Part shown: piece by piece, positions 14,175 through 45,931 of the stretch
How positions within the stretch are numbered: the stretch's first letter is position 1
Layout: each line of letters starts with the position of its first letter
Assembly: GCA_000996085.1 (NCBI GenBank)
Contig: LBYG01000001.1
Location: 651-64,650 of the forward strand
DNA: 64,000 bases
Source of the DNA: Parcubacteria group bacterium GW2011_GWB1_40_14
GTDB taxonomy: Bacteria > Patescibacteriota > Minisyncoccia > Terrybacterales > GWB1-40-14
Reading direction: 5' to 3'
The notes under the pieces: generated by a model
Databases searched by the model: none
The model's input: the letters and a program-made list of their open reading frames with translations, nothing else
Told to the model about the DNA's origin: nothing
Made by a program: the position numbers and the translations under genes

Positions 14175-15332
14175 ATGCGAGTTTCATACTCTAAACTTGA
14201 TACCTATAAGCAATGTCCGCGGAAATATAAGTTTTATATCGATAAGGCGCCGCAGGATCCTTCACGTACTTTGGCTTTGCGGTTTGGCAGTGCGGTCCAT
14301 GCCGCGTTGGAATTTGCTTACGCCAAAAGATATAAATATCCTTCTCCGGAAAGAGTAATTAATTATTACCGGGGTCTTATGCAACAGGAAAGCGATCCTC
14401 AAGTTTTAAAATTATTCGAGAAAGGAATACCGGCCCTTGAGAAATATTTGGCAAAAAATGAAGCTGCGCACATGAGCATTGTTGAAGTTGAAAAGAAATT
14501 TATGATCGAGATCGGACGAGGCCATCAACTCGAAGGTATTATAGACCGTCTTGATATGTTGCCGGACGGGTCTTTTGAGATAATAGATTATAAAACAGGA
14601 CAAATACCTGACGCTGAAAGCCTTTCGAAAAATTGGCAATTAGCCATTTATCAATTTGCTAAACAGCGCAAACTGCAGACAAGCCGTATTAAGGCAAGTT
14701 TGGTCTATATAGCTTTTGACGGCCATAAACTTACTTATCAATTCGGGAAAAACGAACTTGAGCGTATACATAGCGAAATTCTAGATCTGATAGCCAAAAT
14801 AGAAGCAGATAACGTTTATGCCCCACGCGTAAGCGCATTGTGCAATACCTGCGCTTATCAGCCTATTTGTCCGGCCTGGACGCATAAATATAATATTAAA
14901 GACCAGGTTTTAACAGGAAAAATAAAAGATACGGATGTTATAGATATCCAGTCAAAAATTGATAAATTATTAGTTTTAACTTCAACAATTAAAAAACTTG
15001 AGAAAGAATCAAAACAACTCAAAGAAATAGTCGCAATTTTTGGTAAAGAAAATAATATGACGCGACTTTTTTCTGATTTGGGGACAGTTTCATTGTCATT
15101 CCAGAAAAAACGCGCGTATGATGCCGCACGTATTGCCGAGGTGTTGCGCGAAAATTTATTGCGAAAGATAGTTAAAACTCTTGATACAAAAAAACTGGAG
15201 AAAGCCTTGCCTTATTTAACTCAAGAAGAAAGAAAGCAAATAGAAGCATTCACTACCGAAAAAGAATCGCATACCATTGCTGTGCGCCCGACCATAGAAG
15301 AAAATGAAGACGTTGAAGAGCTTCTGACATAA
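14175..15332 (+). CDS. Cas4/AddB-type PD-(D/E)XK nuclease with iron-staple cysteines (stand-alone)
   Basis: N-terminal 'YSKLDTYKQCPRKYKFY' and 'GSAVHAALE'. Nuclease core 'IIDRLDML...EIIDYKTG', 'QLAIYQF'. Cys cluster C14 plus 'CNTCAYQPIC' (C-x2-C-x5-C). Confidence 0.7.
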   Translation: MRVSYSKLDTYKQCPRKYKFYIDKAPQDPSRTLALRFGSAVHAALEFAYAKRYKYPSPERVINYYRGLMQQESDPQVLKLFEKGIPALEKYLAKNEAAHMSIVEVEKKFMIEIGRGHQLEGIIDRLDMLPDGSFEIIDYKTGQIPDAESLSKNWQLAIYQFAKQRKLQTSRIKASLVYIAFDGHKLTYQFGKNELERIHSEILDLIAKIEADNVYAPRVSALCNTCAYQPICPAWTHKYNIKDQVLTGKIKDTDVIDIQSKIDKLLVLTSTIKKLEKESKQLKEIVAIFGKENNMTRLFSDLGTVSLSFQKKRAYDAARIAEVLRENLLRKIVKTLDTKKLEKALPYLTQEERKQIEAFTTEKESHTIAVRPTIEENEDVEELLT

Positions 15333-15393
15333 TTTGATAAAAATATATAGCTAGGATAATATAGATTTAGTTCTTTAAGTTAAGAGGTATCCA

Positions 15394-15693
15394 ATGTCGG
15401 TTAATCTGAATGATGAGTGTCAAACAGAAAAGAAAATTGCGAACATCTTGAAGATAGCAGCTATTAAAGAAATTAAGAGAATAGGCTTTGACGAAGCATC
15501 TGAGAAATTAAGTTTATCTCGTACCGGTTTGAGGTTGATTTGGTCAAAGGAAAGATGGAAAGTTACTGAAGCTATTCGTGTTGCCGAAGCGCTTAATTTG
15601 CCGGCGCTAAAAAAGATGTTGCGCGTATTAGATAAAACTGACGGAAGATCAGGATCTGAAGAAGGGGATTATCCTGATTGGAAAATGCAATAA
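15394..15693 (+). CDS. XRE/Cro-like helix-turn-helix protein
   Basis: 'FDEASEKLSLSRTGLRLIWSKERWKVTEAIRVAEALNL' fits the HTH_3 pattern. 99 aa. Confidence 0.45.
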   Translation: MSVNLNDECQTEKKIANILKIAAIKEIKRIGFDEASEKLSLSRTGLRLIWSKERWKVTEAIRVAEALNLPALKKMLRVLDKTDGRSGSEEGDYPDWKMQ

Positions 15694-15775
15694 GCCCAGT
15701 AGAGCTACCTCGACTGTTCCCTTTGGCGTCGCCAAAGGGAACAAAAACTAAAGTGTCGAGGTAATTCTACTGGGT
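15694..15775. repeat. nested palindromic element: outer stem (cccagtagagctacctcgac / gtcgaggtaattctactggg) enclosing inner hairpin ccctttggcg-t-cgccaaaggg
   Basis: Read directly. Begins 1 nt after the HTH gene stop. Related to the elements at 12506 and 33306. Confidence 0.6.
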
Positions 15776-15803
15776 AAGCCTCAATAATGAGGCTTTTAAT
15801 TTA
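15776..15803 (+). terminator. plus-strand terminator (aagcctca-ataa-tgaggctt + ttaattta)
   Basis: Perfect 8-bp stem plus T-rich tail. Confidence 0.6.
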
Positions 15804-15837
15804 TGAAAGTAAAGCGGTCCGATTATTATCGGACCGC
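15801..15837 (-). terminator. minus-strand terminator (gcggtccgat-aataa-atcggaccgc followed by tttactttcat)
   Basis: Perfect 10-bp stem. T-rich tail on the minus strand. Would terminate the small minus-strand ORF at 15858-16085. Confidence 0.5.
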
Positions 15838-15857
15838 TAAGTTCTTGTTTGTGGAAG

Positions 15858-16085
15858 TTACCTTACGTGAACTTCCGTAATGTTCGGGTATCCTTTAGGG
15901 ATCCAACGGTTTTCGGTGGGCTGACTTCGGCGGAACAGATATGCAGGTCCGCTGATTTGGTACGCGTCTTCGGTCTGCGCGACGACCAAGAACATGTTTC
16001 CATGCGCATCGGTTTCGGTTCGCCGAAGGACAACGTAATTCCCTAGGATGAGTTGAACAAAGAACGAAACAAGCTTCTTGAGCAT
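15858..16085 (-). CDS. hypothetical 75-aa protein in GC-anomalous segment (alternatively part of a structured RNA)
   Basis: Minus-strand ORF has an RBS-like 'gagaagg' 8 nt before its ATG and a near-consensus promoter upstream. The segment is visibly more GC-rich than its surroundings and contains several UUCG-type hairpins. A plus-strand ORF overlaps it. Confidence 0.3.
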   Translation of the reverse strand: MLKKLVSFFVQLILGNYVVLRRTETDAHGNMFLVVAQTEDAYQISGPAYLFRRSQPTENRWIPKGYPNITEVHVR

Positions 16086-16121
16086 CTGAGGTACCTTCTC
16101 TTACGTTACGAAGCTAGTGAG

Positions 16122-16157
16122 TTATTCATATTATATCATAAATAGAATTATTGTCAA
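16122..16157 (-). promoter_or_regulatory. near-consensus sigma70 promoter on minus strand: TTGACA-N17-TATAAT
   Basis: The minus-strand read between the uvrC stop and the small ORF is 'ttgacaataattctatttatgatataat'. Confidence 0.5.
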
Positions 16158-16160
16158 TAT

Positions 16161-17459
16161 TTAAGCTGATTCGGTTTTAGAACGTAATTTGTGATGATAG
16201 CTTTTAGCAAAACGATGCGATTCATCACGCGCGTGCATAAACATCAACAATATCGGGTTATTGTGCGATAAAGCATAAGGCTTTTTTTCGGTGGTTATAT
16301 ATAGCTCTTCCTGTCTTTTTGCTAAGCCGATTATTATCGGCATTTTTTTGAAAGGAATGTCATAAAGTTTTTGCCATTCAAGCAGAGTATTATTAACGGC
16401 GTTTACTTGTGGTCGCCCACCATCAATAAGAAATATATCGGGCAGAGGCCATTCTTTATAATGAGTAAGGCGCCGTCCCATTACTTCTTTATGCATCGCA
16501 ACATCGTTTGCGCCTTCAACCGTTTTTATGCGGAATTTTTTATATAAGGCTTTGATAGGTTTTTTGCCCATAAAAGATACCAAGGAGCCGGTGGCAGAGC
16601 CGCCTTGGATGTTTGAAATATCATAACCTTCAATGAGCCACTCAGAAACATCTTTTTTGGGGAGATATTCTAAAAGACTTTCGGGCAAACCGTTTAACGG
16701 CGAATTTTTATGTTCATGAGTCTGGTCTCCGATAATTTTTTTATGGGCATATATATTTTCTAAACCATTTATCTGATCGCGTAATTTTACAGCTTTTTCA
16801 AAATTTTCCAATTTTGCATATCCCAACATTTCTTTTTTAAGATTTTTTACAAGACGTTTAATTTCACCTTGCAGGATCCTTTTGATTGCTTCGATATTGT
16901 TTTGACAATTTTTGATCTCCTCCGAAGTAGGTTTTTCGGGGATTGGGCATAAGCCCAAAGTGTACCAAAGACAATTTTTTGGCATGTCTTTGTGCGTGCG
17001 GTACGGGAATATTTTGCGTAATAGTTTTAAGGTTCTTTTTAATGCGGCGCCATCTGTAAAAGGTCCTATATATTCCATTTCTATTTTATTGTTTGTTTTG
17101 GCGGGTTGGTGGGTAAGGAAAATGCGCGGACAGGTTTCTTCAGTAAACCCCACATAGAAATATTGTTTATCATCACGTAAGGAAACGTTGTAATAGGGTT
17201 TATGCTGTTTTATTAATTTTGCTTCTATTATCAAGGCTTCAATAGGCGATATTGTAGTTTGCCAAGTCAGTCGCGTTGCGCGTTCAACCAAGGTCACTTT
17301 TCTTGAGTCGGAATTCCCGGTATTGAAGTACGATCGTAATCGCGATTTAAGATTCGTCGCTTTGCCCACATAAATAATTGTATTTTTATCCCAAAAGAAA
17401 TATACGCCCGGCTCAGTAGGGGCTTTTTTCAGTATTTTATCGGCGTTTTCTTTGATCAT
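16161..17459 (-). CDS. uvrC: excinuclease ABC subunit C (short form lacking C-terminal HhH2)
   Basis: GIY-YIG N-terminus 'GVYFFWDKNTIIYVGKATNLKSRLRSYF'. UvrBC-interaction and RNase-H-like endonuclease regions. 432 aa versus ~600 for canonical UvrC. Confidence 0.85.
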   Translation of the reverse strand: MIKENADKILKKAPTEPGVYFFWDKNTIIYVGKATNLKSRLRSYFNTGNSDSRKVTLVERATRLTWQTTISPIEALIIEAKLIKQHKPYYNVSLRDDKQYFYVGFTEETCPRIFLTHQPAKTNNKIEMEYIGPFTDGAALKRTLKLLRKIFPYRTHKDMPKNCLWYTLGLCPIPEKPTSEEIKNCQNNIEAIKRILQGEIKRLVKNLKKEMLGYAKLENFEKAVKLRDQINGLENIYAHKKIIGDQTHEHKNSPLNGLPESLLEYLPKKDVSEWLIEGYDISNIQGGSATGSLVSFMGKKPIKALYKKFRIKTVEGANDVAMHKEVMGRRLTHYKEWPLPDIFLIDGGRPQVNAVNNTLLEWQKLYDIPFKKMPIIIGLAKRQEELYITTEKKPYALSHNNPILLMFMHARDESHRFAKSYHHKLRSKTESA

Positions 17460-37692: not shown

Positions 37693-37873
37693 ATTGTCTG
37701 TTTATATTTATGATATAATCATTATATCATACGAACATTACTTTTATGTTTAACAGTAAAAAATCCAAGAATAGTAAGATTTGTTGGCCCTGCGCTCTTT
37801 TGCCCCCGTTTTTTATAATATTTGTCGTTGTCGTTATAGTATATTTGTTGTTCTTTTCTCCGAATTACTAGAC

Positions 37874-45623: not shown

Positions 45624-45653
45624 TTGACATCAACAATTAAATAAAGATATAAT
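45624..45653 (+). promoter_or_regulatory. sigma70-like promoter TTGACA-N18-TATAAT upstream of the AbrB-type regulator/efflux operon
   Basis: Read directly. Confidence 0.45.
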
Positions 45654-45685: not shown

Positions 45686-45931
45686 ATGGAAGAAATGCAA
45701 AATCAAAAATTTTACGGAACCACAACCCTTGGCGAGAAGGGTCAAGTTGTTGTTCCTGCAGAAGCAAGGACCAGTATGAAACTTGGTAAAGGAGAAAAAT
45801 TACTCGTTTTTGGTATGGGTGAGGATATGCTTATACTGTCTAAAATATCAAATCTTGAAAAATTTGCTTCACATTTAGCAAAAAAAATGGAGGTTATTCA
45901 GAATATTATCGATAAAACTACTAAAAATTAA
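45686..45931 (+). CDS. AbrB/MazE/SpoVT-family DNA-binding protein
   Basis: 'TTLGEKGQVVVPAEARTSMKLGKGEKLLVFG' swapped-hairpin barrel motif. Confidence 0.55.
   Translation: MEEMQNQKFYGTTTLGEKGQVVVPAEARTSMKLGKGEKLLVFGMGEDMLILSKISNLEKFASHLAKKMEVIQNIIDKTTKN

Follow-up and report, generated by a model that had tools for sequence, protein, structure and literature searches.

The segment that follows uvrC in the window (the whole 64-kb stretch of DNA analysed here) very probably carries a lineage-restricted gene for a small protein, equipped with a promoter and a terminator of its own and seen in just a few close groundwater Parcubacteria, and is not a structured RNA. This minus-strand gene (ATG at 16085, stop at 15858; 75 aa) would form its own transcription unit directly after uvrC. 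It seems to be an object of an ordinary kind with an odd composition: an orphan small gene that was probably acquired. A cryptic small gene with a consensus promoter was one of two options offered for this segment by an earlier sequence-only reading, and this option is now supported by a syntenic orthologue, by coding-type substitutions and by a conserved Shine-Dalgarno (SD) sequence and start, in a gene left uncalled in an NCBI record and in two ENA sets.

The small gene and its expression signals

As had been noticed before, overlapping ORFs occur on both strands of the segment (two on the minus strand, of 75 and 56 aa, and a plus-strand one of 65 aa). In comparison to the second lineage (contig L001, 76% amino-acid identity), the 75-codon ORF has 12 differences at first, 5 at second and 19 at third codon positions. 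Nineteen of these 36 substitutions, on which the comparative statistics rest (two full lineages and one fragment), are synonymous versus 8.4 expected (P = 1.2e-4), with a pN/pS of 0.27. The remaining five frames carry stops and show pN/pS ratios of 0.43-2.3, and the sole indel between the lineages is 3 nt long and in frame. Close strains differ from the window ORF by three synonymous and one non-synonymous changes. The two other ORFs were considered and rejected, as neither is conserved: the plus-strand 65-aa ORF is truncated in L001 (pN/pS of its frame 0.83), and the minus-strand 56-aa ORF suffers stops/truncation there (pN/pS 2.3). Judged by this comparison, the 75-codon ORF is a protein-coding gene under purifying selection; TETDAHGNMFLVVAQTEDAYQISGPAYLFR is an example of a tryptic peptide of its predicted product.

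In L001 the order of genes is uvrC, the small ORF and a convergent 98-aa HTH gene, with a SIMPL gene further on. The sequence-only reading had itself named orthologous hits with conserved synteny as the mark of an ordinary gene, and since such an orthologue was found in the second lineage, the segment is a gene. In a search of 5.8 billion proteins the sole matches were an orthologue with 76% identity (P0002) and a variant with 99% identity, 1.84 billion representatives scanned exhaustively with HMMER gave no additional family member, and scans of genome and metagenome contigs for relatives led to the same two lineages only; nothing similar was found in GTDB representative genomes, IMG/VR, or phage and plasmid records. 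A third lineage is represented by a 651-nt contig (L021, sample ERZ28563625, with an HTH protein 70% identical), which holds the last 13 codons, KSHPNIVEVHVH, a stop at the position matching that of the window ORF, and its own terminator. Among named organisms, Candidatus Terrybacteria / Parcubacteria GW2011_GWA2_40_8 come closest. On contigs with a 98%-identical UvrC the ORF is intact and was skipped by their gene calls; neither the NCBI record (L022) nor the ENA calls (L019, L020) include it.

Two observations concern the public annotation of these relatives. The call in L001 (2798-3064, 88 aa) starts at an ATG located 8 nt past the -10 hexamer; in the alignment, the GTG at 2834 is the counterpart of the window ATG and is preceded, 7-8 nt ahead and at the matching place, by a conserved AAGG, and a 76-aa product is more likely. 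In the near-identical genome L022 (NCBI GCA_000993865.2, 1890-3243) the gene calls split the nuclease into two ORFs (166 and 164 aa) and give the HTH protein 80 aa, which suggests frameshifts or assembly errors in that record.

Table 1. Predicted features of the small gene and its transcription unit (window coordinates).
Feature	Position	Strand	Remarks
-35 hexamer TTGACA	16152..16157	-	starts 3 nt past the uvrC stop codon; unchanged in L001
Extended -10 TGATATAAT	16130..16138	-	TATAAT at 16135-16130; 16-nt spacer to -35
5' UTR	16086..16123	-	start site at about 16123, inferred from the -10 position
Shine-Dalgarno GAAGG	16094..16098	-	8 nt ahead of the ATG; read from the sequence
75-codon ORF, stop included: MLKKLVSFFVQLILGNYVVLRRTETDAHGNMFLVVAQTEDAYQISGPAYLFRRSQPTENRWIPKGYPNITEVHVR	15858..16085	-	sole frame open in both lineages; pN/pS 0.27
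7-bp hairpin GGAAGUU-N10-AACUUCC around the stop codon	15853..15876	-	-9.7 kcal/mol, z -3.5
Bidirectional intrinsic terminator	15813..15838	both	11-bp stem, 4-nt loop, U-rich tails; -19.9 kcal/mol, z -7.2

The signals that would drive expression of the gene are listed in Table 1. The promoter, described earlier as near-perfect, matches the consensus (TTGACA-N16-TGnTATAAT) at 12 of 12 positions and carries the extended -10 TG in addition, but its spacer is 16 nt and not 17 nt as had been stated. Perfect TTGACA-N16-18-TATAAT sites number two in the 64 kb, versus 0.10 expected. The other one, TTGACA-N18-TATAAT at 45624-45653 (+), lies ahead of an 81-aa ORF (45686-45931, +) which has the look of an AbrB/SpoVT-type regulator by eye and stands just before a 527-aa ORF.

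Between the window and L001 the promoter is identical at 25 of 28 positions, versus 15 of 42 (36%) in the adjoining UTR. The leader between the -10 and the start is essentially random between the lineages, with the AAGG/SD and the start-adjacent bases kept; the RBS-like sequence reported 8 nt upstream of the start is the GAAGG at 16098-16094. The hairpin terminator reported earlier is real as well, and only its position needs correction, from 15801-15837 to that given in Table 1. It shows two compensatory pairs in L001, and in L021 a different hairpin with a U-tract stands at its place. The stem of the stop-codon hairpin is invariant in L001, with an altered loop; in L021 one U-A pair has become U-G, and the non-coding arm is kept there but the remainder of the 3' region is not. 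On these comparisons, a predicted transcription unit with a sigma-70 promoter and an intrinsic terminator is conserved between lineages, and so are its putative translation start signals. As no terminator was seen between uvrC and the promoter of the small gene, read-through from uvrC into the small gene may take place. The terminator would then end the small gene plus any such read-through, and the convergent HTH gene shares it.

Composition, RNA structure and slow synonymous change

The segment had been described as visibly GC-richer than anything around it, and this is the case: the 200-nt GC content is 0.48-0.515 across 15800-16099 and about 0.38 in the surroundings, and the highest 228-nt GC value of the 64-kb window (0.513) falls in the segment after uvrC. 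The ORF itself (16085..15858) has a GC content of 0.50, equalled or exceeded by just 0.18% of the 228-nt windows in the 64 kb. A comparison of codon usage with the neighbours had been proposed as a check. The GC3 of the ORF is 0.58 versus 0.318 ± 0.030 in 51 genes (+8.7 SD), above all 1396 of 1396 in-frame 76-codon control windows (control maximum 0.49), and its codon-preference score of -0.21 is under all of these controls (lowest -0.06). GC2, at 0.355, equals the genome mean, i.e. second positions are normal. The GC excess is codon usage at third positions and not amino-acid composition. The ORF uses CGN for Arg, CTN for Leu and NNC over NNT, and such GC-rich third positions together with CGN/CTN usage point to a source genome of roughly 50-55% GC, and not to RNA structure. 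In L001 the GC3 of the small gene is also high, at 0.52, compared to 0.31-0.37 in neighbours.

The other option of the sequence-only reading, a structured RNA, found no support. Rfam searched at E<=10 on 15300-16500 gave no match within 15840-16160, the listed sub-threshold matches (E<=10) falling on hairpins at 15687-15851; at the gathering score the whole window gave no match to any family, RNase P, tmRNA, SRP and 6S included; and ARAGORN found neither a tRNA nor a tmRNA. The three UUCG/GNRA-type hairpins to which attention had been drawn are no better than shuffled sequence: on the plus strand they score z -1.5, +0.2 and -0.6 against dinucleotide shuffles, and on the transcribed minus strand just the third reaches z -2.1. 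Folding of the ORF only gave z-scores of -0.85 and -2.35, compared to -0.43 ± 1.16 in 48 ordinary coding segments, 15% of which are at or below -2. Predicted pairs survive substitutions in a proportion of 0.31-0.37 in the ORF and 0.37 in neighbouring genes, a comparison of two lineages and thus of low power. A conserved mRNA structure was rejected on the same ground, as single-sequence minimum-free-energy pairs tested on the other lineage behaved like controls. The RNAalifold consensus contained five "compensatory" pairs, of which two are in the terminator and one inside the ORF, the two others being a doubtful pairing of the leader with sequence past the terminator. A search of the window gave neither a paralogue nor a complementary site. 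The in-window matches are a 15-nt likeness to an AT-rich promoter-like stretch at 37705 and a 14-nt palindrome, CCGATTATTATCGG, shared by the terminator stem-loop (15819-15832) and the uvrC 3' end (16327-16340; blastn E 0.07); the palindrome is not kept in the L001 terminator and may be there by chance.

A second peculiarity of the ORF is its slow synonymous change. Its pS of 0.37 is lower than that of all 369 control windows of equal length, drawn from nine pairs of orthologous genes of the same contig (mean 0.62, minimum 0.384; binomial P = 1.9e-4), and it is lowest, 0.24-0.32, over codons 5-46. The flanks are normal in this respect (0.62-0.72 at the uvrC 3' end, 0.59-0.65 in the HTH gene). 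A gene that had simply been foreign since the common ancestor would not be predicted to show such a low value, which suggests either constraint at the nucleotide level or later exchange. Because the flanks have normal pS, a long recombination tract is unlikely, and with the leader scrambled as well we rejected such a tract, but not a short patch confined to the ORF. The low pS would reflect either constrained synonymous sites or a short patch that was exchanged later.

Two readings that place a function in the RNA have to be weighed against these results. In AT-rich genomes, RNA genes typically show up as GC-rich islands that have a strong promoter and a terminator, and the segment looks like one of them, as a GC island between a consensus promoter and a terminator; moreover, long ORFs on both strands are expected from GC-rich sequence, and several gene callers skipped the ORF. 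However, a purely non-coding structured RNA gene, with the ORF being incidental, is largely refuted and has hardly any probability left: Rfam and the tRNA/tmRNA search are empty, the substitutions follow a coding-type pattern, the indel is in frame, the SD and start are kept within a scrambled leader, and neither excess structure nor pair conservation was seen. A bifunctional transcript seems somewhat less remote, while still unlikely. In this scenario the ORF is translated into the 75-aa protein and the GC-rich body of the mRNA also works at the RNA or DNA level (by structure, stability or base-pairing), which would keep third positions rich in G/C and slow down synonymous change. On one hand, this might account for a pS under every control window, for the runs of 29 nt and 45 nt with 0-1 change, for a GC3 that is high in both lineages, for a stop-codon hairpin kept together with its non-coding arm, and for the folding of the whole transcript (z -2.1 and -3.7). 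On the other hand, the ORF-only z-scores lie within the spread of the ordinary coding segments, predicted pairs survive no better than in neighbours, Rfam gave no match and no complementary target was found in the window. Dual-function sRNAs that encode a small protein include SgrS/SgrT, RNAIII/hld and SR1/SR1P, and their ORFs are mostly of 26-45 codons and fill part of the RNA. Our predicted transcript is like SgrS/SgrT-type RNAs in being short and stand-alone, with a strong promoter, a terminator and an ORF, and in a nucleotide-level conservation beyond the need of the protein, but unlike them its ORF fills the transcript, and neither a base-pairing target nor a conserved structure was found. 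If true, a second function at the nucleotide level would mean compact overlapping protein and RNA constraints in a reduced genome.

The predicted product

The protein HMM search that had been suggested for the 75-aa product matched no family: Pfam, NCBIfam, PHROGs, PADLOC and PDB sequences gave none for the 75-aa, 65-aa or 56-aa products. In PADLOC the small protein and the HTH protein had no match, and the neighbouring nuclease matched Cas4-like PD-(D/E)XK models only. AlphaFold was run twice on the product and gave unreliable models (pLDDT 40 and 47). Residues 5-20 form a hydrophobic stretch of 16 residues, including Q and N (and D in L001), followed by a 55-residue polar tail. A split-off UvrC C-terminal domain was rejected as a candidate, as no helix-hairpin-helix pattern was seen on reading and Pfam gave no match.

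The one resemblance that was found concerns FG-GAP_2 (PF14312), the blade unit of integrin-alpha/VCBS-type beta-propellers, and new propellers are believed to arise by amplification of a single blade (PMC9218822, PMC8023676). Among the matches of the exhaustive scan were giant FG-GAP_2 repeat proteins, with database E-values that are inflated by the summing of 5-6 near-identical repeats. Compared with single repeats, residues 28-61 show 38-43% identity over 34 aa, and hhalign gave 80% probability. Against an HMM of 83 FG-GAP_2 repeats the window protein scored 27.2 bits, 20,000 shuffles peaking at 10, and its core, G-N-x-[FL]-V-V-A-x-x-E-D-A...S-G-P-A-Y-L-F-R-R...W, can be aligned with strands two to four of the repeats in P0003-P0006. 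The L001 orthologue, however, scored only 8.5 bits against the same HMM, because AYLF is replaced there by TDLL (SGPTDLLHRR in place of the window SGPAYLFRRS), i.e. the AY-F part of the motif is lost. The Pfam model itself (gathering score 23 bits) matched neither the window protein nor P0002 at E<=1 or E<=10. Furthermore, unlike in FG-GAP_2 proteins, there is no tandem blade array but one unit of 34 residues, a second internal copy scoring 1 bit with no tandem repeat in the DNA, and there is no confident fold. We regard the FG-GAP resemblance as a lead and not as family membership. We also observed a weak internal similarity in residues 15-35 (15981-16043, -), where GNYVVLRRTETDAH resembles GNMFLVVAQTEDAY; its score of 1 bit is not significant, and it may be a trace of an ancient beta-hairpin duplication.

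With low confidence, one might guess that the product has a hydrophobic N-terminal segment followed by a beta-rich part, the core of which is like one strand-loop-strand of an FG-GAP-type blade. It may perhaps be a small beta-rich binding or self-associating protein, possibly membrane-associated, which is again a guess. That it is a free-standing single FG-GAP-like blade assembling as a homo-oligomer is less likely than a bifunctional transcript; if true, the "single blade" stage that has been proposed in the evolution of propellers would have a natural example here.

The same features of the product invite two further readings of the locus. Its hydrophobic N-terminal stretch, where the low-confidence models put a helix, recalls a type I toxin, a small membrane-active peptide whose translation is restrained by mRNA folding and an antisense RNA. 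In line with this, the SD in L001 is buried in a 7-bp hairpin of the predicted fold, and the gene is an orphan, usually unannotated, beside repair genes. We consider a type I toxin-like element very unlikely, since the search for an antisense RNA found no plus-strand promoter-like site (>=9/12) in 15840-16160, the antisense ORF is the one truncated in L001 (frame pN/pS 0.83), 75 aa with the 55-residue polar tail is long for the class, an Asp stands within the hydrophobic stretch of the L001 orthologue, the SD is free in the window's own predicted fold, and PADLOC gave no match. The alignment to single FG-GAP_2 repeats, with its hhalign probability and its score well beyond the shuffle maximum, could alternatively be taken, together with the foreign codon usage, as a sign of a decaying relic, i.e. 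a fragment of an FG-GAP-repeat gene captured from a GC-richer organism and left without a function of its own. This reading is very unlikely too. The frame is under purifying selection, lineages with saturated neutral sites still share the promoter, SD, stop and terminator, the FG-GAP-like motif is not conserved in the orthologue, and PF14312 matches neither protein even at E<=10.

Origin of the gene and the variable slot behind uvrC

The distribution of the gene is patchy. In two further relatives, L015 and L017 (UvrC 63% and 60% identical), the matching locus is without the cassette and without an HTH homologue, and uvrC ends 10-40 nt from an unrelated convergent gene; the PD-(D/E)XK nuclease beside that locus is still 81% identical in L015. 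The atypical composition together with this patchy presence suggests that the cassette is probably foreign. The horizontal acquisition put forward by the sequence-only reading fits the composition and the distribution, but a donor was not found: genome, metagenome, viral, phage and plasmid collections show the same clade only, with no donor or mobility gene. Like horizontally acquired genes of atypical composition, the small gene has odd GC3 and codon usage, occurs in two or three close lineages but not at the locus of the next relatives, and occupies a slot whose contents vary between relatives. Unlike typical acquired genes, it has no integrase, repeat boundary, or phage or plasmid relative that we could find, its promoter and terminator are of native AT-rich composition, and its foreign composition outlasted a divergence that saturated neutral sites. 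We propose that the cassette and the neighbouring 99-aa XRE-like HTH gene may be a gain specific to one narrow clade of Parcubacteria from groundwater, close to Candidatus Terrybacteria, in a variable slot with uvrC on one side and the PD-(D/E)XK nuclease gene on the other. An acr/aca-like pair with the HTH gene was considered and rejected in view of the convergent orientation, the chromosomal repair-gene context and the lack of a phage or plasmid relative.

Several observations concern the slot itself and its borders. The interval between uvrC and the SIMPL gene varies (window 14175-15693; L001 3154-6912; L015 5385-7219; L017 5307-7859). In L001 a 1107-aa UvrD-helicase/PD-(D/E)XK fusion stands in place of the 385-aa PD-(D/E)XK nuclease of the window; L015 and L017 retain the 385-aa type, unrelated genes of 220 aa or 189 aa adjoin their uvrC, and the L017 interval has an extra glycosyltransferase. 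UvrC itself (16161-17459, -) is 432 aa long, with Pfam domains (GIY-YIG, UVR, RNase H-like) ending at residue 418 and no C-terminal helix-hairpin-helix domain detected by Pfam; as the best 120 UvrC homologues are also of 405-484 aa, the short form seems typical of the group. Between the HTH stop and its terminator, at 15695-15774, lies a near-perfect palindromic hairpin of about 80 nt, single-copy in the window, which is present in L022 and missing in the near-identical strains L004, L019 and L020 and in L001. A 5-bp direct duplication, TAAGC, borders the filled site, and the empty site reads AATGCAATAAGCCTCAATAATG. This hairpin has the look of a miniature inverted-repeat insertion which some strains carry and others lack.

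The small gene is like other orphan small genes missed by pipelines in several respects: it is shorter than 100 codons, belongs to no family, has its own promoter, SD and terminator, occurs in a narrow clade and is left uncalled. It departs from the usual ones in a GC3 that lies 8.7 SD above the mean of its genome, in a synonymous divergence under that of every neighbouring gene and in a promoter of perfect consensus. The point of wider interest is that a foreign GC3 in two lineages is coupled with unusually slow synonymous change. For annotation, our analysis brings a correction, as the NCBI record and two ENA call sets lack a conserved and probably well-expressed small gene of the candidate phyla radiation (CPR), apparently owing to a codon usage foreign to the genome. 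More generally, even where a consensus promoter and a terminator flank a GC island in an AT-rich genome, the island is not necessarily an RNA gene.
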